A stretch of 64,000 bases of DNA from Acidobacteriota bacterium (GTDB taxonomy: Bacteria > Acidobacteriota > Thermoanaerobaculia > UBA5066 > Gp7-AA6): positions 11,625 to 75,624 of the forward strand of contig DAHUXD010000039.1 of the NCBI GenBank assembly GCA_027307335.1, in the 5' to 3' direction. Under the pieces are notes generated by a model. The model searched no databases, had not been told where the DNA came from, and saw nothing but the letters and a program-made list of their open reading frames with translations. Positions within the stretch are counted from its first letter, which is position 1. Every line of letters begins with the position of its first letter. The position numbers and the translations under genes were made by a program. Shown piece after piece: positions 10,044-59,767 of the stretch.

Positions 10044-10522
10044 ATGCGTCCACGAACGAGGCCGATCGCCAGGGAAGGGTGGTCCCGCCGCCGCTGCTGG
10101 TTCTCGTCTGCCTCGGCGGCGGGTGGGTGGCGCACCGCCTTCGGCCCGTGCGCTTCCTGCCGGATCTCGGCGCCGTGGGTCCCGTCGCCGGCGCCGCCCT
10201 GGTCCTGCTCGGCCTCGTCGTCGGCGTCGCCGGCGTCCGCGAGTTCCACCGCCATCGCACCCCGACGAGCCCCTTCCGGCCGACGACCGCTCTCGTCACG
10301 AGCGGAGTGTTTCGCTTCACGCGCAACCCGATGTACCTCGGCTTCGTACTCCTGACCGTGGGCGTGGCGGTCGCCTTCAACTCCGTGGCCCTTCTCGTCT
10401 CGGCCCTGCTCCTGGCGGTGCTGCTCGACGCCGCCGTCATCCGGCCCGAGGAGCGCTTCCTCACGCGGCGGTACGGGTCCGACTTCGAGGCCTACCTCCG
10501 CGCCACGCGCCGCTGGATCTAG
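10040..10522 (+). CDS. isoprenylcysteine carboxyl methyltransferase (ICMT)-family membrane protein
   Basis: A multi-TM N-terminus is followed by [17 protein letters not shown] and [18 protein letters not shown]. The GTG start overlaps the upstream stop (GTGA). Confidence 0.7.
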
Positions 10523-21152: not shown

Positions 21153-21749
21153 GTGAGGGGCTCCGTCTTCGTCGGCGTGAGCGTCGACGGGTTCATGGCC
21201 CGCCCCGACGGACGTTTCGACTTTCTTCCCGAGGGCGGCGGCGAGGAGCACGGCTACACGGAGTTCATGGCCTCGGTGGACGCGCTCGTCATCGGCCGCA
21301 AGACCTACGAGGTGGTGCTCGCCTTTCCCGGCTGGGCCTACGGAAAGAAGCCCGTGTACGTCCTGAGCTCGAAGCCTCTCGCGCCGGCGCCCGAGGGCGC
21401 GGTCGTCGAGAGGATGTCGGGCGATCCGCGGGCGATCGCGGCGGCGCTCGACGCGCGCGGCGTCGGGCACGCCTACGTCGACGGCGGCGAGACGATCCAG
21501 GCTTTCCTGCGGGCCGGACTGATCCAGCGGCTGATCGTCACGCGGGTGCCCGTTCTCGTCGGCGAGGGCATTCCGCTCTTCGGCGCCACCGGCGGCGACG
21601 TCGCGCTCCGGCACGTCGAGACGCGCACCTACGCGGGCGGCCTCGTCAAGAGCGAATACGAGGTGCTCGGCTCGCGGCGGAGGAACGCCGCGTCGGAAAC
21701 GCGGGCCTCGCGAAGCGAGGGACGGGGTTCCGAAGGAGAAGGCACGTAA
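21153..21749 (+). CDS. dihydrofolate reductase-family protein (RibD C-terminal-like)
   Basis: SVFVGVSVDGFMARPDG...LVIGRKTYE follows the RibD-C pattern; there is an unusual S/R/E-rich C-terminal tail. Confidence 0.7.
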   Translation: MRGSVFVGVSVDGFMARPDGRFDFLPEGGGEEHGYTEFMASVDALVIGRKTYEVVLAFPGWAYGKKPVYVLSSKPLAPAPEGAVVERMSGDPRAIAAALDARGVGHAYVDGGETIQAFLRAGLIQRLIVTRVPVLVGEGIPLFGATGGDVALRHVETRTYAGGLVKSEYEVLGSRRRNAASETRASRSEGRGSEGEGT

Positions 21750-37409: not shown

Positions 37410-37449
37410 GGTCGCCCCCTCACCCCGGCCCTCTCCCGAGGGGAGAGGG
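37410..37449. repeat. G-rich hairpin element, copy B (opposite orientation)
   Basis: The reverse complement CCCTCTCCC..GGAGAGGGCCGGGGTGAGGGGGCGACC matches copy A at 6737-6774. It lies just after the MFS stop. Confidence 0.5.
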
Positions 37450-37844: not shown

Positions 37845-37973
37845 CATCGAGTCGTCTTCGCCGGCCGGTCCTCCATTCTCTCGGGCCGGCTGCCGACGCG
37901 GCGTTCTCCCGCCGCGCGGCGGACGCGTGCGATACTCGCCGCCCGAGAACGTCCGTAACAGGAGAATGACGAC

Positions 37974-38963: not shown

Positions 38964-40220
38964 ATGCCTCACGACGTCTCTCTCATCTCGACGGTCGCGA
39001 TCGGCCTGAGCTTCGCGTTCGTCGGCGGCCTGCTCGCCGTGCGCGTGGGCTTGCCGCCGCTCGTCGGCTACCTGCTGGCGGGCATCGTGGTCGGTCCGTT
39101 CACGCCGGGGTTCGTGGCGGACCAGAAGCTCGCCCCGCAGATCGCGGAGATCGGCGTCGTCCTGCTGATGTTCGGCGTCGGCATGCACTTCTCGATCGGC
39201 GACCTCTGGGCCGTCCGCCGGATCGCCGTCCCGGGGGCGATCGGCCAGATCGCGGTGGCGACCGCGCTCGGCGCGGGTGTCTCGCGGTTCTGGGGCTGGG
39301 AGCTCGACGACGGGCTGATGTTCGGCCTGGCGCTGTCGACCGCGAGCACGGTCGTGCTGCTGCGGGCCCTGGAGGATCGAGGCCTGGTTCAGACCGCGGA
39401 CGGCCGGATCGCCATCGGCTGGCTCGTCGTCGAGGATCTCGTCATGGTCCTCGCGCTCGTTCTCCTGCCGGCGCTCGCCCACGCCCTCGCGCCGCCGGGC
39501 GCCCCACCCGCCGCCGGCGGCATCGGATGGGCGATCGCGATCACGCTCGGCAAGGTGATCGCGTTCGTCGGGCTGATGCTCGTGGTGGGCAAGCGGGTCT
39601 TTCCCTGGCTGCTGAGGCGCGTCGACAGGACCGGGTCGAGGGAGCTGTTCACCCTGGCGGTCATCGCGCTCTCGCTCGGCGTGGCGTTCGGGTCCGCCGA
39701 GCTGTTCGGCGTGTCGCTCGCGCTGGGGGCCTTCTTCGCCGGGATGGTGGTTCACGAATCCGATCTGAGCCACCGCGCGGCGCACGAGCTGCGGCCGCTC
39801 CAGGACGCGTTCGGCGCCCTCTTCTTCGTGGCGATGGGCATGCTCTTCGACCCGTCCGTGCTGGTCCGGGAACCGCTCCGGGTCCTCGTCGTCGTCCTCA
39901 TCATCGTGGTCGGCAAGTCGCTGGCGGCCCTCGGCATCGTGCGGCTGCTCCGCGGCTCGATGCACACGGCGCTCACCGTCTCCGCGGCGCTCGCGCAGAT
40001 CGGGGAGTTCTCGTTCATCCTCGCCGCGCTCGGCGTGAGCCTCGGGCTTCTCGTCCCGGAGACGCAGAGCCTGATCGTGGCCGGAGCGCTCCTCTCGATC
40101 ACCATCAATCCCATCGTGTTCCGGGCCCTCGCGCGACCCGCGCGGCGGGAGAACGCCGCGTTGGAAGCCCGGGCCGGACGAAGCGCGGGCCGGAATTCCG
40201 AAGAAGAAATCAGCCCGTGA
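38964..40220 (+). CDS. cation:proton antiporter (CPA2 family)
   Basis: ~12 TM helices with LPPLVGYLLAGIVVGP and EFSFILAALG; no C-terminal KTN domain. Confidence 0.8.
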   Translation: MPHDVSLISTVAIGLSFAFVGGLLAVRVGLPPLVGYLLAGIVVGPFTPGFVADQKLAPQIAEIGVVLLMFGVGMHFSIGDLWAVRRIAVPGAIGQIAVATALGAGVSRFWGWELDDGLMFGLALSTASTVVLLRALEDRGLVQTADGRIAIGWLVVEDLVMVLALVLLPALAHALAPPGAPPAAGGIGWAIAITLGKVIAFVGLMLVVGKRVFPWLLRRVDRTGSRELFTLAVIALSLGVAFGSAELFGVSLALGAFFAGMVVHESDLSHRAAHELRPLQDAFGALFFVAMGMLFDPSVLVREPLRVLVVVLIIVVGKSLAALGIVRLLRGSMHTALTVSAALAQIGEFSFILAALGVSLGLLVPETQSLIVAGALLSITINPIVFRALARPARRENAALEARAGRSAGRNSEEEISP

Positions 40221-41164
40221 GCATCCTCGTCCTCGGCGGCTCCGGCTTCATCGGAGGCGCCGCCGTGCGGCGTCTACGCGCGCGAGGCGCGGAGGTCCGG
40301 ACCTTTCAGCGGGGCGAGGGAGCCGACGTGCGGGGCGATCGGGCCGAGCTTCCGAGGCATCGCGACACCCTCGCGCGCCTCGCGCCGGACGTCGTGGTGG
40401 ATGCGATCGCGTTCACCGAGGCGGACGCCGCCGCCCTCGTCGAGACGTTCCGCGGCGTCGCCCGGCGCACGCTCGTCCTCTCGAGCCAGGACGTGTACGC
40501 ATCCTACGGCCGACTGCTCGGTCTCGAACCGGGCGCGCCGGGGGAGATCCCGTCGAAGGAAGACGGGCCGCTTCGCGCGGCGCGCTTCCCGTACCGCGCG
40601 AAAGCCGCCGGTCCGCAGGAGATGGCGTACGGGTACGAGAAGATCCTCGTCGAGAAGGTCGCGGCCGCGGATCCGGCGCTGCCGGCGACGATCCTGAGGC
40701 TGCCGTGCGTCTACGGACCCGGAGACCGGCACCATCGGGTCGGAAAGGTCCTCGCGCGTCTCGCGTCGGGCAGACCGTTTCTCCTCGATCGCGCGAAGGC
40801 GCGCTGGCGCTGGATGCGCGGGTCGGTCCGGAATGTCGCGGAGGCGATCGCTCTGGCGGCGCTCGACGGGCGCGCCGCGGGCCGCTTCTACAACGTGGGC
40901 GAGGAGCCGGCGCCGACGGAGTCGGAGTGGGTGCATCGGATCGCGCGGGCCGCGGGGCTCTCGGCCGATGTCCGCGAGGTCGCCCGCGCGGAGCTGCCGC
41001 GGGAGCTCGCCGAGCCGTTCGACTTCGCGCACGACCTCGTGGCGGACACGCGGCGCATCCGGGAGGAGCTGGGATACGGCGAGATCGAGGATCCGGAGGC
41101 CGCGGCGAGGACGGCGGTTGCGTGGGAGCGCGCCGCCGGGACATCGTCGGCCTCCAGCTCTTGA
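40217..41164 (+). CDS. NAD-dependent epimerase/dehydratase family protein
   Basis: ILVLGGSGFIGGAAVRRL is the Rossmann motif; GTGA overlap upstream. Confidence 0.75.
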   Translation: MSILVLGGSGFIGGAAVRRLRARGAEVRTFQRGEGADVRGDRAELPRHRDTLARLAPDVVVDAIAFTEADAAALVETFRGVARRTLVLSSQDVYASYGRLLGLEPGAPGEIPSKEDGPLRAARFPYRAKAAGPQEMAYGYEKILVEKVAAADPALPATILRLPCVYGPGDRHHRVGKVLARLASGRPFLLDRAKARWRWMRGSVRNVAEAIALAALDGRAAGRFYNVGEEPAPTESEWVHRIARAAGLSADVREVARAELPRELAEPFDFAHDLVADTRRIREELGYGEIEDPEAAARTAVAWERAAGTSSASSS

Positions 41165-41215
41165 CCGCGTTTTCCGCTTGACTTACGCCCTTTTGACGCC
41201 TAGTCTCGGCTCCCC
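41161..41215 (+). promoter_or_regulatory. candidate promoter region of dnaE2 (three TTGAC motifs spaced 15-17 nt)
   Basis: It is AT-richer than the genome, and TTGAC occurs at 41161, 41178 and 41193. No clear LexA box was recognised. Confidence 0.3.
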
Positions 41216-44200
41216 ATGGCCGATAAGCGCCACCGCCCGTCGGGCAGCGCGCCGGAGATGCCGCCCTCGCGGAACATGGGGGTGGGCAACTCCTCCTGCG
41301 GCGGACGACACTCGGACGCCGACCCGCTGTCCTCCATCGTCTCGGCCGGGGCGCGCAAGGAGAAGCTGAGGCACCGCGACTTCGTGTCGTCCGCGCCGCG
41401 ACACACGAAGGCGCCCCCGTATTCGGAGCTGCGCTGCGCGTCGGCCTTTTCCTTCCTCGACGGCGCGTCGCTGCCGGAGGACCTGGTCGAGGAGGCCGCG
41501 CGGCTGGAGATTCCGGCGGTCGCGCTCGTCGACCGCAACGGCGTCTACGGCGCGCCGCGGTTCTACAAGGCCGCGAAGGCGGCGGGACTCCGGGCGATCG
41601 TGGGCGCGGAGGTGACCTTGGAGGGCGGGGACAAGCCCCGCCCCTACAAACGCAGGCCCGTAGGGGCGGCCCTTGCGGCCGCCCGTCCGGCGCCTCGCCT
41701 CACACTTCTCGTCGAGTCTCGCGCCGGCTACAGGAACCTCTGCCGGCTGATCACCACGGGTGCGCTCGGGAAGGCGAAGGGGGAGACCGCCGTCACGCTC
41801 GACCAGGTCGCCGCGCACGCGGAGGGACTCCACGTCCTGACTGGCGGCGACGAGGGGCCCGCCGCGCGCGCGCTCGGAAAAGGTGGCCTCGACGCCGCGA
41901 AGGATCTCCTCGCGGACCTCCGCGCGATCTTTCCGGGCCGCCTCCACGTCGAGCTCCAGCGCCATCATCTCCGCGAGGAGGAGCACCGCAACCGCGCGCT
42001 CGGCGACCTCGCCCGCGCGCTGAAGCTGCCGCTCGTCGCGACGAACGGCGTGCGCTACGCGCGGACGAAGGACAAGGAACTCCACGACGTCCTGACTTCG
42101 ATCCGGAACCACGTGACGCTCGATCGGGCCGGCCGTCTCCTCGCGGCGCAGCGCGAGCGCCACTTCCGGGGAAGCGCCGCGATGCGCGAGCTCTTCGCCG
42201 ACCGACCGGACGCCGTCGACGCGGCCGCCGAGCTCGCGCGGCGCCTCGACTTCACGCTCGCGGACCTCGGCTACCGATTTCCCGAGTACCCGCTGCCTCC
42301 GGGCGAGACGCCGTCGTCGCACCTGCGCCGCCTGACCTGGAACGGCGCGCGGGCGCGCTTCCGGCCGCTGACCGCGAAGGCGCAGGCGCAGATCGAGAAG
42401 GAGCTCGCGATGATCGAGAAGCTCGACCTCGCCGGCTACTTCCTCATCGTCCACGACGTCGTGCGCTTCTGCCTCGAGGAGCGGATCCTCGTCCAGGGCC
42501 GCGGCTCGGCCGCCAACAGCGCCGTCTGCTACGCGCTCTCGATCACCGCCGTGGACCCGGTGAAGATGGAGCTTCTCTTCGAGCGATTCCTCTCGGAGGA
42601 GCGCGGCGAGTGGCCGGACATCGACCTCGACCTGCCCTCCGGCGACCAGCGCGAGCGCGTCATCCAGCACGTCTACGGGAAGTACGGGCCGCACGGCGCC
42701 GGCATGACGGCGAACGTGATCACCTACCGCGACCGCTCCTCGGCCCGCGAGGTCGCGAAGGCGCTCGGCTACTCGCCGGAGCAGGTGGACGCGCTGTCGA
42801 AGCAGCTTGGCGGCTGGAACTTCGGCGAGATCCGCGAGCCCGTCGAGGAGCTCGAGGGCGAGATCGCCGCCGCCGGCTTCGACCCCGAGGAGCGGCGTGC
42901 GCGCCACTTCCTGCGCCTCTTCCTCCAGATCCAGAACCTCCCGCGCCACCTCGGCCAGCACTCGGGCGGCATCGTCGTCGCGGCGGGCCGGCTCGACGAG
43001 GTCGTCCCGCTCGAGCCCGCGTCCATGCCGGGCCGCGTCGTCGTGCAGTGGGACAAGGACGACTGCGCCGACCTCGGCATCGTCAAGGTGGACCTCCTCG
43101 GCCTCGGCATGCTCGCCGCGATCGAGGAGTGCATTCCCATGATCTCGACGCACGAGAAGGTCGCGGTCGACCTCGCGCACCTGCCGCAGGACGATCCCGC
43201 CGTCTACGGGATGCTGAACGCGGCGGACACGGTCGGCCTCTTCCAGGTCGAGAGCCGCGCACAGATGGCGTCGCTGCCGCGCAACGCGCCGAAATGCTTC
43301 TACGACATCGTCGTGCAGGTCGCGATCATCCGGCCGGGGCCGATCGTCGGCGGCATGGTCCATCCCTTCTTCGACCGGCGGCAGGGGAGAGCGCCGGTCG
43401 AGTATCCGGACCCCTGCCTCGAGCCGATCCTGAAGCGCACGCTCGGCGTGCCGCTCTTCCAGGAGCAAATCCTGAAGATGGCGATGGTCGCGGCGGGCTT
43501 CTCGGGCGGCGAGGCCGAGGAGCTGCGGCGCGCGATGGGGTTCAAGCGCTCGGCCGAGCGCATGGAGTCGATCGAGACGCGGCTGCGCCTCGGGATGGCG
43601 GCGCGCGGCATCGGCGAGAAGGCGCGCGACCAGATCGTCAAGTGCATCACGTCGTTCGCGCTCTACGGCTTTCCCGAGTCGCACGCGGCGAGCTTCGCGC
43701 TCATCGCCTATGCGAGCGCGTACCTGAAGGCGCACCACCCGGCCGCGTTCCTCGCGGCGCTCTTGAACTCGTGGCCGATGGGCTTCTACCACCCGGCGAC
43801 GCTCGTGAAGGACGCGCAGCACCACGGCACCCGCGTCCGGCCGATCGACGCGACGCGCTCGGGCTGGAAGTGCCGGTGGGAGGAGGGCGCGGTGCGCCTG
43901 GGGATGCGCTTCGTCAAGGGTCTGCGCGAGGAGGCCGGCCTCTCGGTCGAGCGCGCGCAGGCCGAGCGGCCGTTCGCCTCGATCGACGATCTCGCGCGGC
44001 GCTCGGCGCTGCGTCCCGGCGACCTCGAGCTCCTCGCCCACGCGGGCGCGCTCTCGGGGTTTGGGAAGTCGCGGCGCGAGGCGCTGTGGCAGGTGTCGAA
44101 GGTCGCGCGCCGTGCCGGGCCGCTCCTCGACGCGCTGCCGACCGACGGCGTCTCGCCGCTGCCCGAGATGTCGCCGATCGAGGAGACGCGCGCGGACTAC

Positions 44201-44581
44201 CAGACGGCGGAGATGACGGCCGGGCCGCACATGCTCGCGCACCTGCGGGACGGGCTCGCGCGCCGCGGCGTGATCCCCGCGCGGGATCTGCCGCGCCGCG
44301 CGGATGGCGACCGCGTCACGACCGCGGGCGCGGTGATCGTGCGGCAGCGGCCGGGGACGGCGAAGGGCTTCGTGTTCCTGACGCTGGAGGACGAGACCGG
44401 GATGCTCCAGGCGATCGTGCGGCCGGACCTGTTCAAGGAGCAGCGGGCGCTCGTCGTCGGCTCGGGCGCGCTGGTGGTCGAGGGCCGCCTCCAGAAGCAG
44501 GACGGCTCGATGTCGGTCAAGGCGGAGCGGTTCTGGACGATCCCGGAGTTCGAGAGCCTGCCGAGCCACGATTTCCGTTAG
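41216..44581 (+). CDS. dnaE2: error-prone DNA polymerase DnaE2 (ImuC)
   Basis: The PHP-domain start YSELRCASAFSFLDGASLPEDLVEEA is followed by Pol III alpha core motifs and a C-terminal OB fold. Upstream of the conserved N-terminus the frame keeps strong GC3 bias, so ATG 41216 is the likely start; GTG 41384 is an alternative. Confidence 0.85.
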   Translation: MADKRHRPSGSAPEMPPSRNMGVGNSSCGGRHSDADPLSSIVSAGARKEKLRHRDFVSSAPRHTKAPPYSELRCASAFSFLDGASLPEDLVEEAARLEIPAVALVDRNGVYGAPRFYKAAKAAGLRAIVGAEVTLEGGDKPRPYKRRPVGAALAAARPAPRLTLLVESRAGYRNLCRLITTGALGKAKGETAVTLDQVAAHAEGLHVLTGGDEGPAARALGKGGLDAAKDLLADLRAIFPGRLHVELQRHHLREEEHRNRALGDLARALKLPLVATNGVRYARTKDKELHDVLTSIRNHVTLDRAGRLLAAQRERHFRGSAAMRELFADRPDAVDAAAELARRLDFTLADLGYRFPEYPLPPGETPSSHLRRLTWNGARARFRPLTAKAQAQIEKELAMIEKLDLAGYFLIVHDVVRFCLEERILVQGRGSAANSAVCYALSITAVDPVKMELLFERFLSEERGEWPDIDLDLPSGDQRERVIQHVYGKYGPHGAGMTANVITYRDRSSAREVAKALGYSPEQVDALSKQLGGWNFGEIREPVEELEGEIAAAGFDPEERRARHFLRLFLQIQNLPRHLGQHSGGIVVAAGRLDEVVPLEPASMPGRVVVQWDKDDCADLGIVKVDLLGLGMLAAIEECIPMISTHEKVAVDLAHLPQDDPAVYGMLNAADTVGLFQVESRAQMASLPRNAPKCFYDIVVQVAIIRPGPIVGGMVHPFFDRRQGRAPVEYPDPCLEPILKRTLGVPLFQEQILKMAMVAAGFSGGEAEELRRAMGFKRSAERMESIETRLRLGMAARGIGEKARDQIVKCITSFALYGFPESHAASFALIAYASAYLKAHHPAAFLAALLNSWPMGFYHPATLVKDAQHHGTRVRPIDATRSGWKCRWEEGAVRLGMRFVKGLREEAGLSVERAQAERPFASIDDLARRSALRPGDLELLAHAGALSGFGKSRREALWQVSKVARRAGPLLDALPTDGVSPLPEMSPIEETRADYQTAEMTAGPHMLAHLRDGLARRGVIPARDLPRRADGDRVTTAGAVIVRQRPGTAKGFVFLTLEDETGMLQAIVRPDLFKEQRALVVGSGALVVEGRLQKQDGSMSVKAERFWTIPEFESLPSHDFR
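41624..41684. repeat. REP-like double-hairpin element, copy 1 (rearranged; in-frame inside dnaE2)
   Basis: GGCGGGGACAAGCCCCGCCCCTAC-13 nt-TAGGGGCGGCCCTTGCGGCCGCCC. The two hairpins and the CCCCTAC/GTAGGGG ends match the intergenic copies. It encodes GGDKPRPYKRRPVGAALAAARP. Confidence 0.55.
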
Positions 44582-44601
44582 AGACGCCGCAGACGCCTTC
44601 T

Positions 44602-44687
44602 GTCATCCCGAGGAGCGCAGCGACGAGGGATCCCTTTGAAGTCACCGCGGGGGCATCGAAGGGATCCCTCGCTTCGCTCGGGATGAC
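44602..44687. repeat. imperfect inverted repeat built from two GTCATCCCGAG...GGGATCC modules
   Basis: Left arm 44602-44633, right arm 44661-44687. The right arm reverse complement is GTCATCCCGAGCGAAGCGAGGGATCC, which I recognise as a widespread motif that translates as CHPERSEGS in misannotated ORFs. Confidence 0.55.
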
Positions 44688-44731
44688 AAGAAAAGGCAAC
44701 CTTCCGTTCCGAGCCTCGTAAACTCCTCCCG

Positions 44732-46978
44732 ATGCGTCCCGGCACCCTCGCCGCTCTGGCCGTGCTGTGCGCGCCCGTTCTCCTCGGCCAGGAGCAGAAG
44801 CCTCTGCCCGTCCCTCCGACCCTGAATCTGCCGCTCCTCAAGGGCCCGATCACGATCGACGGAGACCTCTCCGATCCGGCCTGGGCCGACGCGCTCGTCA
44901 TCGACACCTTCTACGAGTTCCAGCCCGGCGACGGAACCGTGCCGCCCGTCAAGACGATCGCGCGCGTCGGGCGCGACGACCGGTACCTCTACGCGTCGTT
45001 CTGGTGCGAGGAGCCGGACATGGGCAAGCTCCGCGCGCCGTTCGTCGACCGCGACGGCGTGACCGACCAGATGGACTACGTCGGCATCCTGCTCGACGTG
45101 GACAACGCGCGCCGCTCGGCCGTCGACTTCTGGATCAACCCGCGGGGCATCCAGACCGACTCGATGCTGAACGAGTCCCCCTTTGGCGAGGACACCTCGC
45201 CGGACTGGTTCTGGAACTCGGCCGGGAAGATCGGGACGAACTCGTGGACGGTCGAGGTCGCGATCCCGCTCGCCTCGCTCCGTTACCCGAAGAAGGACCC
45301 CCAGGACTGGGCGTTGATGGTCTACCGGGTCTGGCCGCGCGACTTCAATTACCAGTTCTACAGCGTCCGGATGCCGCGCGGTTCGAACTGCTTCCTCTGC
45401 TGGTCGGCGACCGTGCAGAGCATCGCCGGTCTGCCGCAGGGCATGCACTACGTCCTCGCGCCGTACGCGGCCGGGTTCTCCGACACGACGTATCCGCCCG
45501 ACGGCGTCGTGAACGCCGAACCCGAGACGAAGGACAAGGCCGAGGCCGGCGTGGACCTGAAGTGGCTGCCGGACGCGGGCACCATCGTCGACGCGACCAT
45601 CAACCCCGACTTCTCGCAGGTCGAATCGGACGTCGTGCAGATCGGCGTCAACGAGCGCTTCGCGCTCTTCTACCCGGAGAAGCGGCCGTTCTTCCTCGAG
45701 CAGGTCGATCTGCTGCAGACGCCGATCCAGGCGATCTACACGCGGACGATCACGGATCCTCTCTGGGGGGCGCGCCTGACGAGCCGCGCCGGCTCGACCT
45801 CCTACACGCTGCTCGCGACGGACGACCGCGGCGGCGGCACGGTCGTGATCCCGGGGCCCGTCTTCTCGGACACGGCGCCGCAGGATTTCCAGTCCTGGGT
45901 CGGCATCGGACGCGCGCGCCACGACATCGGCGCCTCGTACGTCGGCGTCGTCGGCACGGCGCGCGTCATCGAGGGCGGCGGCTACAACTACGTCGGCGGC
46001 GCGGACTTCCAGTGGCACCCGAACGACGCCGACCTCGTCTCGGGCCAGTACCTCTACAGCGTCTCCCGCGAGCCCGACAAGCCGAACCTCTATCCGGGAT
46101 GGACGGGTCAGGCTCTCGCGGGCTTCGGCTTGACGACGCAGTGGTCGCACAGCGACTACCACTGGGACTGGCTCCTGCAGTACGACGACTTCGCGGACGG
46201 CTTCCGCGCCGACGACGGCTTCGTGCCCCAGGTCGGCTACGAGCAGGGGACGTGGAACGGCGGATATCGCGTCTATCCGACCGGCTTCTTCTCGCGGCTG
46301 CGCGTGGGGACCGGCGGCAACTACTCGGTCGACCGCGGCGGCGCGCTCATCTCACGGAAGGCTTTCCCGTCGATCACCTTCCAGGCGATGGGCGGATGGA
46401 AGACCGAGTTCGACTACAACCTCGAGGCGGTCTCGATCGGCGGCCGGGAGCTCGACTACGACCGCTTCGTCTGGACGATGACGGCGTCGCCGTCGGCGTT
46501 CCTGCCGGTCGTCGGGCTCTCCGGCAACTACGGCGAGCAGCCGGACGTCGAGAACGTGCGCGTCGGGAAGGGCGGCGACGTGCTGCTGACCGCGCTGATC
46601 CGCCCGACCGACCACCTCGGGCTCGACCTGCGTCTCGAGCGCCGCTGGATCGACGAGACGGTCGGCGGGCTCGCGGGCAACCTCTTCACCGCGGACGTCG
46701 CGCGGCTGAAGGCCGTGTACGTCTTCAACGCGCGCATGCTCGTGCGCCTGATCGGCCAGTACCAGGACGTGCGCCGCGATCCGGCGCTCTGGATCCAGCC
46801 GGCCCTCGAGAAGGAGGGCGCGTTCGCCGGGTCGGTCCTCTTCTCGTACAAGCTCAACTGGCAGAGCGTCGTCTTCGCCGGCTACGGCGACGCGCGCGCC
46901 CTCGACGAGACCGGAACGCTGCTCCTGCCGACGGGGCGGCAGTTCTTCGTCAAGGTCTCGTACGCGTTCCAGCGCTGA
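44732..46978 (+). CDS. large secreted/outer-membrane protein (DUF5916/CBM9-like family candidate)
   Basis: A signal peptide (MRPGTLAALAVLCAPVLLG), 748 aa, and beta-rich Gly/aromatic-rich repeats. The family assignment is from memory. Confidence 0.6.
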   Translation: MRPGTLAALAVLCAPVLLGQEQKPLPVPPTLNLPLLKGPITIDGDLSDPAWADALVIDTFYEFQPGDGTVPPVKTIARVGRDDRYLYASFWCEEPDMGKLRAPFVDRDGVTDQMDYVGILLDVDNARRSAVDFWINPRGIQTDSMLNESPFGEDTSPDWFWNSAGKIGTNSWTVEVAIPLASLRYPKKDPQDWALMVYRVWPRDFNYQFYSVRMPRGSNCFLCWSATVQSIAGLPQGMHYVLAPYAAGFSDTTYPPDGVVNAEPETKDKAEAGVDLKWLPDAGTIVDATINPDFSQVESDVVQIGVNERFALFYPEKRPFFLEQVDLLQTPIQAIYTRTITDPLWGARLTSRAGSTSYTLLATDDRGGGTVVIPGPVFSDTAPQDFQSWVGIGRARHDIGASYVGVVGTARVIEGGGYNYVGGADFQWHPNDADLVSGQYLYSVSREPDKPNLYPGWTGQALAGFGLTTQWSHSDYHWDWLLQYDDFADGFRADDGFVPQVGYEQGTWNGGYRVYPTGFFSRLRVGTGGNYSVDRGGALISRKAFPSITFQAMGGWKTEFDYNLEAVSIGGRELDYDRFVWTMTASPSAFLPVVGLSGNYGEQPDVENVRVGKGGDVLLTALIRPTDHLGLDLRLERRWIDETVGGLAGNLFTADVARLKAVYVFNARMLVRLIGQYQDVRRDPALWIQPALEKEGAFAGSVLFSYKLNWQSVVFAGYGDARALDETGTLLLPTGRQFFVKVSYAFQR

Positions 46979-47056
46979 CGGAAGACCGCCTCCCCCCAGC
47001 CCTCTCTCCCTGAAGGGGGAGCGGGGGTTTGAAAGGACGCGTCCTCCAATGAAAAC

Positions 47057-47098
47057 TCTCTCCCCCCAGCGGGGGGAGAGGGGAGGGTGAGGGGGGAG
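47057..47098. repeat. G-rich hairpin element, copy C
   Basis: CTCTCCCCCC-AGC-GGGGGGAGAG is a perfect 10-bp stem, followed by GGGAGGGTGAGGGGGGAG, related to copies A and B. A second imperfect G/C hairpin lies at 46988-47027. Confidence 0.45.
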
Positions 47099-47137
47099 AA
47101 GGAACTTTCGCGTTGGCGCGGTTTCCCTCCTGACAGA

Positions 47138-50100
47138 ATGCCGACCGTGCTCTCCGTCTCGCAGCGGCTTCGGATCGCCGTCCTCGTGTCGGCGCTCGCG
47201 GGAATCGCGGCGCTCCCCGCCGCGCCGAAGCCCGCTCCGGCCGCAGCGCCCACGTGGGCCGAGGTGGATCGGCTCGTCAAGGACCAGAAGCTCCAGGAGG
47301 CGTCGGGTCTCGTCGACCGCCTCCTCGAATCGGCGAGGGAGCGCCACGACGAGGCCGGCTGGACGAAGGCGCTCGTCCGGGCCGTGCAGCTCCGCATCGG
47401 GCTCGGGAACTACGAGACCGCCGTCCGATTCCTGAAGGAGCAGCCCTGGCCGCCGGGGCTCCTGTCGCAGACGACGCTCGACCTGTTCTATGCGCAGGCG
47501 CTCGTCCAGTACGAGCGCGTCTACTCGTGGGAGATCGCGCAGCGCGAGTCGGTCGTGATCGAAGGCGATCTCGACCTGAAGCTCAAGACCCGCGACCAGC
47601 TCTACGAGGAGGCCCAGGGGGCCTACGCCCGCGTCTGGGCCCGTCGCGCCGAGCTCGGCGCGCTTCCCGTCGGCGTCCTCGCGGAGTACGTGGAACCGAA
47701 CGATTACCCGAAGGACGTCCGCGGCACGCTGCGCGACGCGGTCTCGTATCTCTATGCGGAGCTCCTCGCGGATTCGGCGCTCTGGAAACCGAACCAGGGG
47801 AGCGAGGTCTACCGGCTCGACCTCGCCGCCCTGCTCTCCGAGGACGGGGCCGCGGCGTCCCCGGCGCTCGCGGACCGGAACGCGCACCCGATTTCGAAGC
47901 TCGTCGCCGTTCTCGCCGATCTCGAGTCCTGGCACGCCGGCCGCGGGGATCGTCCGGCGGAGCTCGAGGCGCGGCTCGAGCGCGACCGCCGGCTGCATGC
48001 GGCGTATCCGACCCCCGAGGACCGCGAGCGCATCCGGAAGGACCTCGAGGCGAGACTGACGAAGTACCGGCAGATTCCGTGGTGGTCGATGGGCATGGCG
48101 CGGCTCGCCGAGCTCTGGCAGGCGGAGGACGAGCCGGACAACCTCGTCCACGCGCACGGTTCGGCGCTCGAGGGCGCGCGCGCCTTTCCGGAATCGCCGG
48201 GCGGCGGTCTCTGCGCGCGGATCCTCGACGCGATCGACGCGCCCGACTACCAGCTGACCGCGATGTCCTCGGACGCTCCCGATCGCCGCTCGATCGAAAT
48301 CGTCCACAGGAACCTCCCGCGGCTGTTCTTCCGGATCTACGCCGCGGACCTCGACCGGCGCATCGGCGAGCCGCGCTTCGACCTCAACCCGTCGGCCGAG
48401 GAGGTCCGCGCGCTGGTGCGCTCGGGGCGGCCGGCGTCGGCGTGGACCGAGGGTCTCCCGGCGACGCCGGACTACAAGAACCACCGGACGTTCGTGACGC
48501 CGAAGGCCGGCCGCGGGCTGTGGATCGTCGTCGCCTCGGCCCGCGCCGATTTCGCCGAGAGGGAGAACCGAGTGGTCTCGGTCGCGGTGCTCCTCGGCGA
48601 TCTCGTGATGCTGACCGACGCGGAGACCTCACACGTCGACACTCGCGTGGTCGACGGCTCGGGCGCGGCCGCCTCCGGGGCCGAGGTCACGCTGTACGCC
48701 TTCGACTGGCAGTCGGGGCGCTCGGCGCGCGTCGCCGCGGTCGTGACGGGCGCGGACGGGCTGGCGCGCTTCGACGGGGACCGCTCGGCCGATCGGCGCG
48801 CGCTTTTTCTCGTCGCACGGCGCCTCGGCGACGCCGCCGTGGACCGCAGCGCCTTCTCGCTCACGGCGCGGCCGCCCGCGGCGGAGACGGCCGCCGCGCT
48901 GGTGTACACCGACCGCGCCATCTACCGTCCGCTGCAGACCGTGAAGTGGAAGGTCGTGGCCTACGGCGGCCGCGCGGATCTCGGGCGGTTCCGCGTCTCG
49001 CCGCGGACACCCGTGACCGTCCGGCTGCGCGACCGCAACAACGAGGTCGTCGAGACGGCGACCGCGTTCACCGACGACTACGGCGCGGCGGCCGGCGAGT
49101 TCCGCATTCCCGCGGGGCGCGTGCTCGGCAGCTGGTCCGTCGAGTGCGATCCGAGGGGCTCGGCCGGAATCCAGATCGAGGAATACAAGCGGCCGACCTT
49201 CGAGGTGAAGTGGGAAGCGCCGAACGAGCCGCCGCGTCTCAACCGGCCGGCGGTCCTTCGCGGATCCGCGCGCTACTACTTCGGCCTGCCGGTCTCGGCC
49301 GGAAAGGTCCGCTGGCAGGTCTGGCGCCGCCCGGAGTTCCCGTGGTGGTGGCAGTGGCGCCACCCGTGGGTCGGCCGGGATGGCGGCGGAATCGTCGCGC
49401 AGGGCGAGGCGCCGCTGAAACCGGACGGCACGTTCGAAGCCGCCTTCACGCCGGCGGCCGACGAGCGCGCCGCGGACGCGAAGGAGCTCTCGTACCAGTT
49501 CCGCGCGACCGCGGACGTCACCGACGAGGGCGGAGAGACCCGCTCGGATGCGCGAGCGTTCACGCTCGGCTTCGTCGCGGTGAGCGCCTCGCTCTCGCTC
49601 GAGAGCGGCTTCTTCCGCGCGGGCCGGCCGGGAGTCGTGACGGTTGTGCGAACGGACCTCGACGGCGCGCCGCGGCCGGGCGTGGGAACGTGGCGCCTCG
49701 TTTCGCTCGCGGGTCCCGACCGCGCGCTCCGGCCTTCCGAGGTGCCGGCGCCGCCGCACTTCGACGACACGGTCACGACGCCGGGGGACCGGCTGCGTCC
49801 CCGCTGGGCGACCGCGGAGTCGCTGAGGGTGACGCTCCAGGGCTGGAAGGACGGGCCCGAGAGAGACCGGGGGAGCGTCACGCACGACGCTCAGGGGCGC
49901 GGGCGCATCGACCTCCCGGCCCTTCCCGCGGGCGCCTGGCGCCTGCGGTACGAGACTCGGGACGAATCGGGCGGCGTCTGCGCGCGCGAGGAGGACTTTC
50001 TGGTCGCCGGCGCGACGACGCCGGTGCCGGTCGCGGCGGTGCTGCTCGTCGAGCGAGAGTCCGTCGAGGTGGGGGGCGTCGCCCGCGTCCTCGCCTTCGC

Positions 50101-53100: not shown

Positions 53101-53143
53101 GTTCTCGGCCTACTCGGCGGGAACGGTGATTACGGTCCGGTAG
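47138..53143 (+). CDS. alpha-2-macroglobulin family protein (thioester-containing, 2001 aa)
   Basis: A signal peptide (MPTVLSVSQRLRIAVLVSALAGIAALPA), repeated MG-like beta domains, the thioester motif YECVEQT, and an alpha-helical A2M/TED region. Confidence 0.85.
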   Translation: MPTVLSVSQRLRIAVLVSALAGIAALPAAPKPAPAAAPTWAEVDRLVKDQKLQEASGLVDRLLESARERHDEAGWTKALVRAVQLRIGLGNYETAVRFLKEQPWPPGLLSQTTLDLFYAQALVQYERVYSWEIAQRESVVIEGDLDLKLKTRDQLYEEAQGAYARVWARRAELGALPVGVLAEYVEPNDYPKDVRGTLRDAVSYLYAELLADSALWKPNQGSEVYRLDLAALLSEDGAAASPALADRNAHPISKLVAVLADLESWHAGRGDRPAELEARLERDRRLHAAYPTPEDRERIRKDLEARLTKYRQIPWWSMGMARLAELWQAEDEPDNLVHAHGSALEGARAFPESPGGGLCARILDAIDAPDYQLTAMSSDAPDRRSIEIVHRNLPRLFFRIYAADLDRRIGEPRFDLNPSAEEVRALVRSGRPASAWTEGLPATPDYKNHRTFVTPKAGRGLWIVVASARADFAERENRVVSVAVLLGDLVMLTDAETSHVDTRVVDGSGAAASGAEVTLYAFDWQSGRSARVAAVVTGADGLARFDGDRSADRRALFLVARRLGDAAVDRSAFSLTARPPAAETAAALVYTDRAIYRPLQTVKWKVVAYGGRADLGRFRVSPRTPVTVRLRDRNNEVVETATAFTDDYGAAAGEFRIPAGRVLGSWSVECDPRGSAGIQIEEYKRPTFEVKWEAPNEPPRLNRPAVLRGSARYYFGLPVSAGKVRWQVWRRPEFPWWWQWRHPWVGRDGGGIVAQGEAPLKPDGTFEAAFTPAADERAADAKELSYQFRATADVTDEGGETRSDARAFTLGFVAVSASLSLESGFFRAGRPGVVTVVRTDLDGAPRPGVGTWRLVSLAGPDRALRPSEVPAPPHFDDTVTTPGDRLRPRWATAESLRVTLQGWKDGPERDRGSVTHDAQGRGRIDLPALPAGAWRLRYETRDESGGVCAREEDFLVAGATTPVPVAAVLLVERESVEVGGVARVLAFAGLPGQPWVLERLRSGEVVSRETLSGDAKSVFEIPIREEDRGGFALRLSLVSDHQVITESASILVPWTDRELSVSFATFRDRIRPGARETWRVTVKAPAGAAGEERTAQLLAYMVDRSLDAFGGYYPPNPLSLYPNHANAGYLRSSVSAAGAAWVFDNAFGARGAPVLLHGDRPKFLEGYGIGGPGVRMFAQRAMAKSEAGAANAAVDAMKEGVEGGLAGAPAPASEPAPGRGAVATGEAPPSPVLRSDFSETAFWKPQLLTDADGSAVIEFQVPDSVTSWNVWVHAITRDIKAGSVHRETRSVKDLMVRPYVPRFLREDDRGELKVVVNNASERPMSGTVALDILDAETNRSVLADFGLAPDAASRAFAAAAGGSADATFTLAAPKRVGAYAIQATAVSGDFSDGELRPVPVLPGRMQLSQSRFAALRGGDTRTLSFADMAKTDDPSRVNEQLAVTVDAQLFYSVLNALPYLVNYPYECVEQTLNRFVSTGIVSSLFRQYPAVERMAQDLAKRDTPLEAWAAPDPTRRMALEETPWLEEAKGGKGAGSGLVKVLDPRAAGAEREAALAKLRRAQTASGAFPWWSGGPPSPYMTLYVMYGFAKAAEFGVDVPRDVVARGWAYLAAHYRGEYEKRMAADRCSPEWLTFLAYVATCYPDPSWMGDALTRAEREAILAFSFRHWREQSPYLKGMLALALKRSGRGDDARRVWASIMDSSKTDADLGTYWAPEDRAWLWYEDTIETQAFALRALMEISPTDPRRHGLVQWLFLNKKLNQWKSTRATAEALYALVAYLKKEGVLAARESVAVALAGQKTVFDFEPDRYTGSRDQVVVPGERIDPKRDADVVVSKTGTGLAFASATWSFSTDRLPAEERGDLFAVSRRYYRHEPTPSGVELRPLAEGAALSTGDEVEVQLSIRAKHAAEYVHLRDPRAAGLEPGVATSGYRWDLGLVRYEEIRDSGTNFFFEWLPAGEYTLKYRVRANMGGTFRVGPATLQSMYAPEFSAYSAGTVITVR

Positions 53144-53191
53144 GGGCGGCCCTCGTGGCCGCCCGCGGGCGGGGACGAGCGCCGCCCCTAC
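53140..53191. repeat. REP-like double-hairpin element, copy 2
   Basis: GTAGGGG-hairpin-GCG-hairpin-CCCCTAC. The TAG at 53141-53143 is the A2M stop. The CTA at 53188-53190 is the stop of the convergent YceI gene. Confidence 0.65.
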
Positions 53192-53850: not shown

Positions 53851-56697
53851 ATGAGACGCTTCGCCGCCGCCCTGGCGCTCGCTCTGGCGCCGCTCGCCGC
53901 CCTCGCGCAGGTCCTGCCCGGCCACCGCCTGCCCGACGGGGCCGACCGCCCGGTCCGGGACCGCGCGTACCACATCGAGAAATACGTCGCGGAGCTCTCC
54001 TTCGACATGGAGAAGGAGGAGATCGCCGGAACGGCGACGGTCACGTTCCAGTCGCTGCGGGCGCCGCTCGACACGCTCTCGCTCGACGCGGCGCGGCTCG
54101 ACGTCTCGCGCGTCGAGCGCGACGGAAAGCCTCTCCAGTTCCAGGTGGATTCGAAGAACTTCAAGCTGAACGTGGCGCTCGGAGCGCCGCTCCCGCTGGG
54201 CCAGTCCGCCACCGTCCGCGTCGCCTATCGCGCGCACCCGCGGGTCGGTCTCTACTTCTTCCCCGGCTCCGGCAAGGAGGAGGCGCAGGCCTGGAACTAC
54301 GGCGAGGGAGGCCTGCACGATGCCTGGCTCCCGATCTACAACGACACGAACGACCGCTTCGCCGTCGAGTTCGTGGTGACCGTTCCGAAGGGTTTCACCG
54401 CCGTGTCGAACGGAACGCTCGAGGGGCCCAGGGAGAACGCCGATGGCTCGCGCACGTTCCACTGGGTCGAAGAGAAGCCGATCCCGAATTACCTGATGAC
54501 CGTCGACGTCGGCCACTTCGCGCGGGTGCCGCTCGCGGATGCGAAGGTCGGCGACCGGTCGGTGCCGCTGGCCGTGTGGACGCGACCCGGCGGCGAGGAC
54601 GCCGCCCGGTACACGTTCGGCGACACGCCGAAGATGGTCGAGTTCTTCTCGCAGAAGATGGGCTACCCGTACCCGTGGGTGAAATACGACCAGGTCGTCG
54701 TCCGCGACTTCGCGGTCGGCGCGATGGAGACCACGACCGCGACGGGCTTCGGCGCCTCGCACGTCCACGTCGCGGGCGATCCGCCCGACTCGGGCCCCGA
54801 CTTCTCCGAGGCGTGGCCCGTCTTCACGGTCGAGGACACGATCTCGCACGAGCTCGCGCACCACTGGTTCGGCGACCTCGTGACCTGCCGCTCGATCGGA
54901 TCGATCTGGCTGAACGAGTCCTTCGCGACGTTCTGGCACACGGTCTGGAACCAGCACGCCCACGGCGAGGACGACCTGACCTACCAGCGCTGGTGGTACC
55001 TGAACAAGTACGTCGACCACACCCGGGAGACGGGCGAGGTTCGCCCGATGGAGTACCTGAAGTACACGGAGCCGACCGCGATGTATCAGGAGGAGCTGAC
55101 GTACGTGAAGGGCTCCCTCGTCCTCCACATGCTGCGGCACTTCCTCGGCGACGAGGACTTCTACCGGATGATCGCGTCGTACCTGCAGCGGCACCAGTTC
55201 GGCAGCGTCGAGTCGGCGGACCTCTACGAGGCGATCGAGCTCGCCGCGGGGCACAACTTCTCGTGGTTCTTCCAGGACTGGATCGTCGGGGGCGGAGGGC
55301 ATCCCCGGTTCGACGTCTCCTACCGGTGGGTCCCCGAGCGCCAGCAGGTCGACGTCACGGTCAAGCAGATCCAGGCGGACCTGCCGTTCGAGAACGACTT
55401 CCGGCTGCCGGTCGAGATCGAGGTCGTGGATGCCTCCGGCGCGGCCGCGACGCACCGCGTGGAGCTTTCGCGCTGGTCGACGACGGTGGCGCTGCCGGCG
55501 GCGAGCCGGCCGCGGCGCGTCACGTTCGATAAGGGCGGCTGGCTCGTGTGCGAGGTCAAGTACGAGCGGCCGATCGGCGAGGTGCTCGACGAGCTCGACC
55601 ACGCGGACCTCTCGAACCGCCTTCGGGCCGCGCCGCAGCTCGCGGACGACTTCGGCCGCGAACCGCGCGCCGTCGCGGCGCTGTCGCGGGTCCTCGCCGA
55701 CCCGGCGTCGCACTGGGGCCTCAAGCAGGAGGCGGCGCTCGACCTCGGCCGCGCGGGCGGGGCCTCGGCGGCGCGCGCGCTCGAGAAGGCGCTCGCGTCG
55801 GAGCCGAACCCGCGCGTGCGCCGCGCGGTCGCCATCGGCCTCGGCACGTGCGGCGAGGCGTCGTCGGCCGCGGCTCTCCGTCGCGCCGTCGAGACCGACC
55901 GCGCCGAGGACGTGATCGGCGCCGCCGAGATCTCCCTCGGGCGGATCGGCGCTGCGGGCACGAAGGACTTCCTCGTCCGGCAGCTCGCGCGGGACTCGCG
56001 CTGGTGGGACTCGATCCGGGTGTCGGCAGTCAGCGGCCTCGGCAAGCTCGACGATCCGACGCTCGCCGGCACGTTCTCCGGATACACCGATCCGAAATAC
56101 GTTCCGGAGCTCCGGTCGGCCGCGCTTTCGGGATGGCTCGCCGCCGCCCCGGACGATCCGAATCTGTCGGCCGCGCTCCGCACGCTGACGAACGACCGCA
56201 ATCGCGGGATCCGCGAGGACGCGGTCAAGAAGCTCGCCGCGCTCCACCACGCGTCGGACCTCGCGCTGCTCAAGGAGCTCGAGGCAGATCCGGATCCGAC
56301 GATCGCCTACTTCGCGAAGGCGGGGGCGGAGGAGACGGAGGGTTTCGTGAAACGGTATGGGCGGGGCTTGTCCCCGCCCGCTCGCGGGCGGCCGCAAGGG
56401 CCGCCCCTACGGCGGAGTGAGCCTCAGGCCGCGGCCTCCCCGTCCCTCACGATCCTTCCGTCCTTGATCTCCACCACCCGTCCCGCGCGCCGGGCGAGCG
56501 TCAGGTCGTGCGTGATGACGACGAGCGTCGAGCCCTGCTGCCAGAGCTCGGTGAAGAGGCCCATGATGTCGCCGCCGGCCGAAGTGTCGAGGTTCCCGGT
56601 CGGCTCGTCCGCGAGGATCACGTCCGGCTTCATCGCGAGCGCGCGGGCGATCGCGACTCGCTGCATCTGCCCGCCCGAGAGCTCGGTCGGCTTGTGA
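53851..56697 (+). CDS. M1-family zinc aminopeptidase (aminopeptidase N-like); ORF as read extends past the probable ancestral stop at 56356-56358
   Basis: A signal peptide, the GAMEN-like VGAMETT, HELAHHWFGDLVT (HEXXH) and NESFATF, and C-terminal HEAT-like repeats. The last ~113 codons are S/P/R-rich and antisense to the ABC ATPase gene. Confidence 0.8.
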   Translation: MRRFAAALALALAPLAALAQVLPGHRLPDGADRPVRDRAYHIEKYVAELSFDMEKEEIAGTATVTFQSLRAPLDTLSLDAARLDVSRVERDGKPLQFQVDSKNFKLNVALGAPLPLGQSATVRVAYRAHPRVGLYFFPGSGKEEAQAWNYGEGGLHDAWLPIYNDTNDRFAVEFVVTVPKGFTAVSNGTLEGPRENADGSRTFHWVEEKPIPNYLMTVDVGHFARVPLADAKVGDRSVPLAVWTRPGGEDAARYTFGDTPKMVEFFSQKMGYPYPWVKYDQVVVRDFAVGAMETTTATGFGASHVHVAGDPPDSGPDFSEAWPVFTVEDTISHELAHHWFGDLVTCRSIGSIWLNESFATFWHTVWNQHAHGEDDLTYQRWWYLNKYVDHTRETGEVRPMEYLKYTEPTAMYQEELTYVKGSLVLHMLRHFLGDEDFYRMIASYLQRHQFGSVESADLYEAIELAAGHNFSWFFQDWIVGGGGHPRFDVSYRWVPERQQVDVTVKQIQADLPFENDFRLPVEIEVVDASGAAATHRVELSRWSTTVALPAASRPRRVTFDKGGWLVCEVKYERPIGEVLDELDHADLSNRLRAAPQLADDFGREPRAVAALSRVLADPASHWGLKQEAALDLGRAGGASAARALEKALASEPNPRVRRAVAIGLGTCGEASSAAALRRAVETDRAEDVIGAAEISLGRIGAAGTKDFLVRQLARDSRWWDSIRVSAVSGLGKLDDPTLAGTFSGYTDPKYVPELRSAALSGWLAAAPDDPNLSAALRTLTNDRNRGIREDAVKKLAALHHASDLALLKELEADPDPTIAYFAKAGAEETEGFVKRYGRGLSPPARGRPQGPPLRRSEPQAAASPSLTILPSLISTTRPARRASVRSCVMTTSVEPCCQSSVKRPMMSPPAEVSRFPVGSSARITSGFIASARAIATRCICPPESSVGL
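56355..56410. repeat. REP-like double-hairpin element, copy 3 (leading GTAGGGG altered to GTATGGG)
   Basis: TATGGGCGGGGCTTGTCCCCGCCC-GCTCGC-GGGCGGCCGCAAGGGCCGCCC-CTAC. Confidence 0.65.
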
Positions 56698-57113
56698 TCC
56701 ATGCGATCGCCGAGGCCGACCTTCGTCAGGAGCTCCACGACCCGCTCGCGCCGCTTCCTCGGCGGCACGCCCCCGAAGAGGAGCGGCAGCTCGACGTTCT
56801 CGAAGGCCGAGATCTGCGACAGGAGATTGAAGCCCTGGAAGACGAAGCCGACGCGGCGGTTGCGCACGTCGGCGAGCGCGTCGCGCGTGAACTTCGAGAC
56901 GTCCTCGCCGCCCAGGCGGTACCGCCCCTCGGTCGGCGTGTCGAGGCAGCCGATCAGGTTCATCAGCGTGGACTTCCCGGAACCCGACGGCCCGACGACC
57001 GCCACGAACTCGCCCTGCTGAACGGAGAAGTCGATGCCCATCAGGGCCTCGACCTTCACCTTGCCGGTGTCGTACACCTTCCGGATCCCCTGCATCTCGA
57101 TGATGGCGGTCAT
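56424..57113 (-). CDS. ABC transporter ATP-binding protein (MacB/LolD-like ATPase)
   Basis: Walker A GPSGSGKST, signature LSGGQMQRVAIARAL, Walker B ILADEPTGNLD. Confidence 0.85.
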   Translation of the reverse strand: MTAIIEMQGIRKVYDTGKVKVEALMGIDFSVQQGEFVAVVGPSGSGKSTLMNLIGCLDTPTEGRYRLGGEDVSKFTRDALADVRNRRVGFVFQGFNLLSQISAFENVELPLLFGGVPPRKRRERVVELLTKVGLGDRMDHKPTELSGGQMQRVAIARALAMKPDVILADEPTGNLDTSAGGDIMGLFTELWQQGSTLVVITHDLTLARRAGRVVEIKDGRIVRDGEAAA

Positions 57114-57125
57114 GGCATCTCCATC

Positions 57126-57196
57126 GGGGTCAGGTCTCTAGAAGAGCGTTCTCGTCTCATTTCTGGACCAAACCGCTCATTGAGAGACCTGACCCC
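57126..57196. repeat. structured inverted-repeat element, copy 2 (GGGGTCAGGTCTCT...AGAGACCTGACCCC)
   Basis: Perfect 14-bp terminal stems around a ~43-nt loop. It fills the gap between the permease stop and the ATPase start. Confidence 0.55.
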
Positions 57197-57197
57197 A

Positions 57198-58454
<1,257 letters not shown>

Positions 58455-59715: not shown

Positions 59716-59767
59716 GTAGGGGCGGGGCTCGTCCCCGCCCGCGGGCGGCCGCAAGGGCCGCCCCTAC
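59716..59767. repeat. REP-like double-hairpin element, copy 4
   Basis: GTAGGGGCGGGGCTCGTCCCCGCCC-GCG-GGCGGCCGCAAGGGCCGCCC-CTAC. Confidence 0.65.

Follow-up and report, generated by a model that had tools for sequence, protein, structure and literature searches.

In a 64,000-nucleotide stretch of contig DAHUXD010000039.1, from an Acidobacteriota bacterium of the class Thermoanaerobaculia (the whole stretch is referred to here as the window), the gene for the error-prone DNA polymerase DnaE2 contains a pair of repetitive extragenic palindromic (REP) sequences that are read in frame. This pair is a tail-to-tail (TT) heterodimer of a GTAG-tagged REP family, and it lies in a loop of the PHP domain that differs in length and content from one related polymerase to the next. 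We propose, with a probability of about 0.8, that the heterodimer is translated and tolerated, and that the loop is disordered and acts as a landing pad for repeats. The comparison covered some 200 Acidobacteriota orthologues overall, in sets of 120 proteins (72-90% identical) and 80 genomic loci (53-88% identical); single loci and proteins are cited by L and P numbers.

The dnaE2 open reading frame (ORF), identified from its translation, occupies positions 41216..44581 on the plus strand (1121 codons plus stop). Its 61 bases at 41624-41684 read GGCGGGGACAAGCCCCGCCCCTAC-AAACGCAGGCCC-GTAGGGGCGGCCCTTGCGGCCGCCC and are translated within the frame as ...TLEGGDKPRPYKRRPVGAALAAARPAPRLTLLVE.... Each REP unit is built from GTAG, a further G and an 8-bp stem with a 5-nt loop. 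Two stem types occur, type A (GGGCGGCC/GGCCGCCC) and type B (GGGCGGGG/CCCCGCCC), the difference between them being a compensated CC/GG swap. The first unit in dnaE2 (41623..41647, minus strand) is a type B unit that forms an 8-bp hairpin; it reads GTAGGGGCGGGGCTTGTCCCCGCCC on the minus strand and ..G DKPRPY in the plus-strand translation. A 12-nt spacer, AAACGCAGGCCC (41648..41659, plus strand), separates the two inward-facing GTAG tags, and the second unit, GTAGGGGCGGCCCTTGCGGCCGCCC (41660..41684, plus strand), is of type A, is translated as VGAALAAAR and has the same sequence as the type A units of 56386-56410 and 59743-59767. The order is inverted B, spacer, forward A, with the tags inside.

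The first-pass annotation had reported both hairpins and the family's ends within these 61 bp, in reverse orientation and permuted order, as a REP-derived segment read in frame inside dnaE2. The sequence is exact, the frame is open throughout, and the wording on orientation and order correctly describes a TT dimer, with its tags inside rather than outside as elsewhere in the window. A metagenome scan yielded at least 120 TT dimers of the same family, with spacers of 6-24 nt and variable sequence, and some of these (L172 and L173) show the identical pairing of inverted B with forward A; the permuted order is therefore an ordinary arrangement of the family. The frame of the insert avoids the TAG of GTAG, and the element is thus translated straight through, which lengthens the protein by a Pro-, Arg- and Ala-rich stretch of about 21 residues (DKPRPYKRRPVGAALAAARPA). 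Inspection by eye revealed no convincing remnants of outer partner REPs beside the TT dimer and no evident target-site duplication around the insert, and an Rfam scan of 40500-45500 gave nothing above threshold. The pair may have been mobilised as a TT dimer, or it may consist of the inner units of two adjacent head-to-head (HH) dimers.

Each half of the dnaE2 pair has matches with 0-2 mismatches at three other places in the window, bringing the total to eight REP units at 4 sites in 64 kb; the same units are found in related genomes. In dinucleotide-preserving shuffles the expected numbers of matches were 0.03 and 0.00 for the two halves, versus 4 observed for each, and the G+C content of the window (72%) therefore cannot account for the resemblance. 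The three other copies are HH heterodimers of A and B, with the GTAG tags outside and the units 3-6 nt apart, and all three lie at gene ends. The first (53140..53191, plus strand; A then inverted B) supplies the stop codon of the gene upstream of it: the alpha-2-macroglobulin-like gene (47033-53143) ends in TVITVR, and the following stop is the TAG of the first GTAG (53141-53143). The second (56355..56410, plus strand; B then inverted A) lies at the 3' end of a peptidase M1 ORF, and the third (59716..59767, plus strand; B then inverted A) falls between two minus-strand genes. The peptidase M1/HEAT ORF runs in frame through the second dimer (...FVKRYGRGLSPPARGRPQGPPLRR...) to the next stop at 56697, about 95 codons further on, in an extension antisense to a convergent ATP-binding cassette (ABC) transporter ATPase gene (56427-57137, minus strand). 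For orthologous peptidases the called length is 835-905 residues; the original stop of the ORF may have been displaced by the REP at 56355-56410.

In 1.5 Mb of related loci a full-unit pattern detected 22 complete GTAG-family units at 12 sites, two of which are dnaE2 loops. None of the remaining sites was seen deep within a conserved coding region, and those compared with gene calls lie at gene ends or between genes. A count of intragenic versus intergenic copies based on a 10-mer pattern was dropped in favour of the full-unit pattern, as it collected chance hits and conserved coding matches.

The insert corresponds to residues 137-160 of the ORF. In the Pfam assignment the PHP domain covers residues 72-250 and is followed by DNA_pol3_alpha (369-629), finger, HHH_6 and OB domains, so that the insert is inside the PHP domain and well before the polymerase core, which starts at 369. 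It is located between strands b3 (GAEVTL) and b4 (RLTLLVE): the codons of b3 end at 41620 and those of b4 start at 41696, leaving a variable loop cassette of 25 codons (41621..41695, plus strand). Alignment to solved structures of the alpha subunit of DNA polymerase III (Pol III alpha) places the site between the strands IVGAEVTL and RLTLLVE, in a loop whose length varies among these structures (about 20 residues in Taq and about 9 in E. coli). The location had been anticipated as a variable loop between the PHP domain and the polymerase core; the loop stands, while the linker does not, since this is a variable loop within the PHP domain itself. An AlphaFold2 model based on 61 orthologues predicts strands at model residues 65-74 and 100-105 with coil between them, and its predicted local distance difference test (pLDDT) score drops below 50 at model residues 78-95, which are the insert. 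The model points to the same loop placement as the alignment, and the loop with its insert is probably disordered. Because the loop is predicted to be disordered, the polymerase carrying the insert most likely remains functional.

The host gene itself is well preserved. It retains the catalytic PDIDLD active-site motif, its G+C content at third codon positions (GC3) is 0.95, and an alignment of 61 DnaE2 orthologues contains hundreds of invariant columns. The protein is recorded exactly as P0123; its orthologues, found in Thermoanaerobaculia and elsewhere among the Acidobacteriota, carry the name error-prone DNA polymerase, and its closest full-length relatives show 92-94% protein identity when the loop is excluded. 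We infer that the DnaE2 protein is made and active.

Comparison with orthologues bears out the prediction of an insertion (about 20-22 residues) exactly at this site. The shortest orthologue loops have 3-5 residues (TLESG-GRLTLLVE) versus 25 in the window, an excess of about 21, and the window's REP-encoded peptide was found in no orthologue compared. Most orthologues have an insert of their own in the b3-b4 loop, and loops of 8 residues or fewer occur in 11 of 114. Among 109 full-length orthologues the loop is the sole internal site of variable length, ranging from 3 to 82 residues (median 25, standard deviation 13.7); all other internal sites have a median of 0. Indel hotspots were absent from two control genes, DUF5916 and A2M, which with only 11 and 5 orthologues make a weak control; the remainder of DnaE2 itself is the stronger one.

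Measured in DNA over 78 loci, the loop is 9-462 nt long (3-154 residues). Its length is a multiple of three in 77 of the 78, counting one loop (L014) that was resolved by hand, and there is no stop codon in any. These loops are therefore translated through and not skipped. Two frameshifts were seen in this set, one inside the loop of L055 (about 10412-10485) and one in L014 about 20 codons 3' of the loop (about 10540), where the protein is called in N-terminally truncated form (P0110, 888 aa). Both are Microflora Danica (MFD) metagenome-assembled genomes (MAGs), which we take to be long-read assemblies, and the frameshifts may be either a real off-state or sequencing error.

What fills the loop changes between relatives. 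In the genome L001/L005, whose protein is 84% identical, the b3-b4 loop holds a dimer of the GTAG family in HH arrangement, and a 98% identical copy of this dimer lies just past the stop codon of its own dnaE2. The loop of L052 contains hairpin B and the 3' arm of hairpin A, and looks like a deletion remnant. A GTAG-family peptide signature is present in 7 of 114 loops. Overall, peptide signatures assign at least 62 of the 114 to one of four families, with two loops being composites of two families, and at least four unrelated repeat families occupy this loop. In 19 of 56 cases the loop insert folds far more stably than control segments of dnaE2.

One of the other families, CCCTCTCCC...GGGAGAGGG(+GGGGTGAGGGG), fills several loops and is also present at 6737-6770, 37416-37449 and 47053-47096 of the window; it occupies the dnaE2 loop of the window's closest relatives (L002, L203 and L204). 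The hairpins of this family in the window all appear to be intergenic. A further inverted-repeat element of about 90 nt (44600..44690, plus strand), of a second family, begins 20 nt past the dnaE2 stop and has a fold z-score of -6.1. Where members of its family sit in loops they encode SHPEERSDEGS...SLAALGMT; the inserts in the L007 and L011 loops match the element, and by sequence inspection the loop of L205 belongs to the same family. A repeat also directly follows the dnaE2 stop in L001, L003 and L004. The loops of L004, L006, L008 and L014 are formed by A+T-rich 7-nt tandem arrays (CGGAATT, CCGAAAT or AAATCCA), whose G+C content of 41-46% is far lower than that of the flanking G+C-rich coding sequence. 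With a unit that is not a multiple of three, slippage in these arrays could shift the frame.

Copies of the loop repeat outside the loop but at the same locus were found in L018, L023, L028, L033, L069 (an Acidimicrobiia MAG) and L080. Additional copies occur elsewhere inside the same dnaE2 in L033 (10065-10123, 12678-12746 and 13026-13065) and in L018 (13071-13117). These may represent secondary insertion sites near the C-terminal region, comparable to residues 934-971 in Opitutus terrae (see below).

The turnover is clearest between close relatives. The flanks of 300 nt are 84-92% identical between the window and its closest full-length relatives, yet all of their loop cassettes are unrelated to that of the window. 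Nucleotide homology ends after the Leu codon of GAEVTL and restarts at the Arg codon of RLTLLVE. The evidence for mobility is comparative: at one site, relatives differ in having a repeat, lacking it or carrying another in its place. In one subclade (L019, L021, L024, L027, L029, L035, L045 and L047, with DnaE2 64-71% identical to that of the window) the loops share R-x-GPLG[IL]VP. The GPLG[IL]VP segment is encoded with many synonymous differences and is therefore conserved at the protein level, possibly as a short linear interaction motif with its origin in the variable loop.

On these grounds we suggest the following course of events. A TT heterodimer would have entered the coding sequence of the b3-b4 hairpin loop, a place where the shortest orthologue loops form a tight turn, and the same few codons would have been filled, emptied and refilled repeatedly in this lineage by several unrelated families of palindromic repeats. 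Selection would pass only variants that keep the frame and are free of stops, which is the sole visible filter. Candidate routes of entry are a REP-associated tyrosine transposase (RAYT) or, at a resident palindrome, recombination directed by the hairpin or template switching. A resident hairpin that both attracts insertions and provokes deletions would be a reasonable mechanism.

Several points weigh against this proposal. The neutrality of the insert is an assumption. The disordered loop is read from low pLDDT together with the alignment, and the model as a whole is of no more than moderate quality (mean pLDDT 67.7, predicted template modelling score 0.48); likewise, expression and activity of the protein are presumed. 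The conservation of GPLG[IL]VP in one subclade means that the loop can acquire function. A single hotspot in a protein of 1100 residues with many surface loops exceeds what simple tolerance would lead one to expect. Finally, the scan of 33 window ORFs gave no gene for a REP-associated transposase (Pfam Y1_Tnp) of the kind that REPs flank in a REPIN/RAYT system, although RAYTs are usually single-copy and their absence from 64 kb says little.

It is also conceivable that the b3-b4 loop is an actively targeted "safe harbour", in which a feature of the DNA would draw unrelated REP and miniature inverted-repeat transposable element (MITE) families to the same two codon boundaries. Such a feature might be the resident hairpin, recruiting REP transposases or provoking breakage and templated repair. 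We hold this possibility only tentatively and think it improbable on balance. Were it true, turnover of the cassettes would outpace point divergence, and occasional functional loop motifs, or frame-shifting arrays that switch a mutagenic polymerase on and off, might follow.

An adaptive insert is, in our judgement, unlikely. In this case the hairpins or the peptide would modulate DnaE2, through its activity, its partners, mRNA stability or translation, and the turnover would reflect selection or a contingency locus for switch-like mutagenesis. The uniqueness of the hotspot within dnaE2, the replacement of cassettes between relatives that are 92-94% identical and the subclade that keeps GPLG[IL]VP under purifying selection all speak for this, as do the 7-nt arrays that could slip out of frame and the frameshift inside the L055 loop; Di Nocera et al. 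(PMC3733652) also speculated that REP-tagged repair genes may favour mutator states. However, loop contents that are unrelated in sequence, in length (3-154 residues) and in family argue against a common function, and the 11 of 114 orthologues with 8 loop residues or fewer do well. Off-states are moreover rare, the lone exception to the 77 in-frame loops being a long-read MAG in which indel errors are plausible. Decay of dnaE2 into a pseudogene, in which repeats accumulate unselected, is far less probable still. The gene does not lie beside imuA or imuB, and frameshifts are present in L014 and L055, but the window ORF is intact over its 1121 codons, with a GC3 of 0.95 and the catalytic motif kept, and the 61-orthologue alignment has its hundreds of invariant columns. 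A pseudogene would gain indels everywhere, whereas here a single loop takes all the insertions, with the frame kept at 77 of 78 loci.

The G+C-rich hairpins in a coding region also resemble bypass elements, and the segment (peptide span DKPRPYKRRPVGAALAAAR) could in principle be absent from the protein through translational hopping or excision at the RNA level. In known bypass systems, such as T4 gene 60 and the mitochondrial "byp" elements, the bypassed inserts need not preserve the frame and often carry stops. The dnaE2 loops behave otherwise: all are stop-free and 77 of 78 are multiples of three, versus about one third expected without constraint, and no Rfam family matches 40500-45500, which leaves bypass with almost no credibility. 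The suspicion of chance similarity or of an assembly artefact at a repeat arises naturally in a metagenome-assembled contig of such high G+C content, and G/C-rich chance resemblance had been named at the outset as a way in which the REP assignment might fail. It is excluded by the shuffles described above, and the flanks are colinear with those of orthologues from independent assemblies, each with its own cassette at exactly the same site; chance or artefact is therefore as implausible an account as bypass. The translated and tolerated heterodimer in a loop that serves as a landing pad remains the explanation we prefer.

The family agrees closely with the GTAG-tagged REPs described by Di Nocera, De Gregorio and Rocco in 2013 (BMC Genomics 14:522, PMC3733652); what we say of this paper concerns those portions of it drawn on here. 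In that work a GTAG-tagged REP has a terminal GTAG beside a stem-loop with a stem of 5-13 bp and a loop of 2-20 nt, a range that includes the dnaE2 units (GTAG, G, 8-bp stem and 5-nt loop). Such REPs form HH and TT dimers, the latter typically with variable spacers, and the window contains three HH and one TT heterodimer. Their usual place is 3' of genes, in the gaps between ORFs that are co-directional or convergent, and their TAG is described as habitually supplying the stop of the upstream gene; correspondingly, the window's HH dimers are at gene ends, one of them donating its TAG, and the units in related loci lie between called genes. The multicopy state (eight units at 4 sites in 64 kb), the use of two variants in heterodimers of both dimer types and the VGAALAA-type encoded peptide, which resembles those in the paper's list, are further points of likeness. 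Unlike the hosts represented in those portions of the paper, the window's host belongs to the phylum Acidobacteriota (class Thermoanaerobaculia), and no associated transposase was seen.

The same paper reports intragenic REPs in several species, many of them in replication and repair genes. Its Additional file 3 lists four REP-tagged dnaE2 genes: Opitutus terrae Oter_4053 (residues 934-971), Sphingomonas wittichii Swit_1119 (166-246), Rhodopseudomonas palustris RPE_1827 (128-157) and Erythrobacter litoralis ELI_05390 (175-203). The first-pass annotation had supposed that in-frame palindromic insertions are rarely documented beyond Rickettsia, which does not hold, as intragenic GTAG and CGTC REPs were described there in many species. 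The window's insert resembles these cases in that REP dimers or groups are translated in frame within the error-prone polymerase gene; here the ORF is open, and the segment is absent from shorter homologues. The O. terrae insert differs in lying at 934-971 and not in the b3-b4 loop. A search with the REP peptide for the published DnaE2 proteins returned two fragments only. In the Erythrobacter-like fragment (P0121) the REP peptide follows PHP strand b5 and the b3-b4 loop is short, and therefore at least some of the published dnaE2 sites differ from that of the window.

Intragenic GTAG REPs, dnaE2 included, were thus already published in 2013 (PMC3733652), and what stands out here is the reuse of one loop as a hotspot. 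The portions of that paper drawn on here contain no report of one loop reused by several families across a clade; a hotspot of this kind across the phylum was found neither there nor in the REPIN/RAYT titles and abstracts that a second search listed. A full-text literature search combining DnaE2 with "repetitive extragenic palindromic" returned nothing beyond PMC3733652.

Rickettsia palindromic elements (RPEs) are also palindromic repeats inserted in frame in protein genes, where they are thought to be tolerated at surface positions. They differ in their CGTC tag, as opposed to GTAG in the window, in their host and in their A+T-rich sequence. RPE insertions at a given site are usually inherited by descent and are not replaced by other families. 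RPE-4 and RPE-6 have been classed as CGTC REPs (PMC3733652). The REPINs mobilised with RAYTs (Bertels and Rainey 2011, PMC3116915) and the bacterial interspersed mosaic elements (BIMEs) of E. coli share with the dnaE2 pair the inverted REP doublets and the hairpins; these doublets behave as non-autonomous mobile units, and in their clusters REPs alternate in orientation, giving both junction types. REPINs are described as extragenic, unlike the intragenic pair of the window, which has no RAYT among its scanned ORFs.

The window's insert adds a case from a new phylum to the translated REPs inside repair and replication genes. More useful is the comparative result, in which almost every lineage carries a different cassette, with sharp boundaries, in one loop of a conserved enzyme of 1100 residues. 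The loop offers a naturally replicated set of cases in which REPs were gained, lost or replaced at a defined site, which could be used to study REP targeting, the rate of turnover and the capacity of a polymerase loop for foreign sequence. It also bears on the suggestion made in 2013 that the presence of REPs in repair genes is not accidental (PMC3733652).

As for the surroundings of dnaE2, neither imuA nor imuB adjoins the gene in the window; the genes upstream (38964-41164) encode a Na/H exchanger and an epimerase. These two, again without imuA or imuB, also precede dnaE2 in L002, L204 and L205.

Other repeats occur in the window as well. A direct repeat of 68 nt (21673-21740 and 40141-40208, 81% identical) and a 32-nt inverted match to it (37888-37919, 94% complementary), all near gene ends, probably constitute a further small repeat family. 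Two longer pairs of direct repeats, 57387-57627 with 58637-58877 (72% identical) and 57837-57935 with 59087-59185 (71%), share a spacing of 1250 nt and look like tandem paralogous genes for MacB/FtsX-type permeases.

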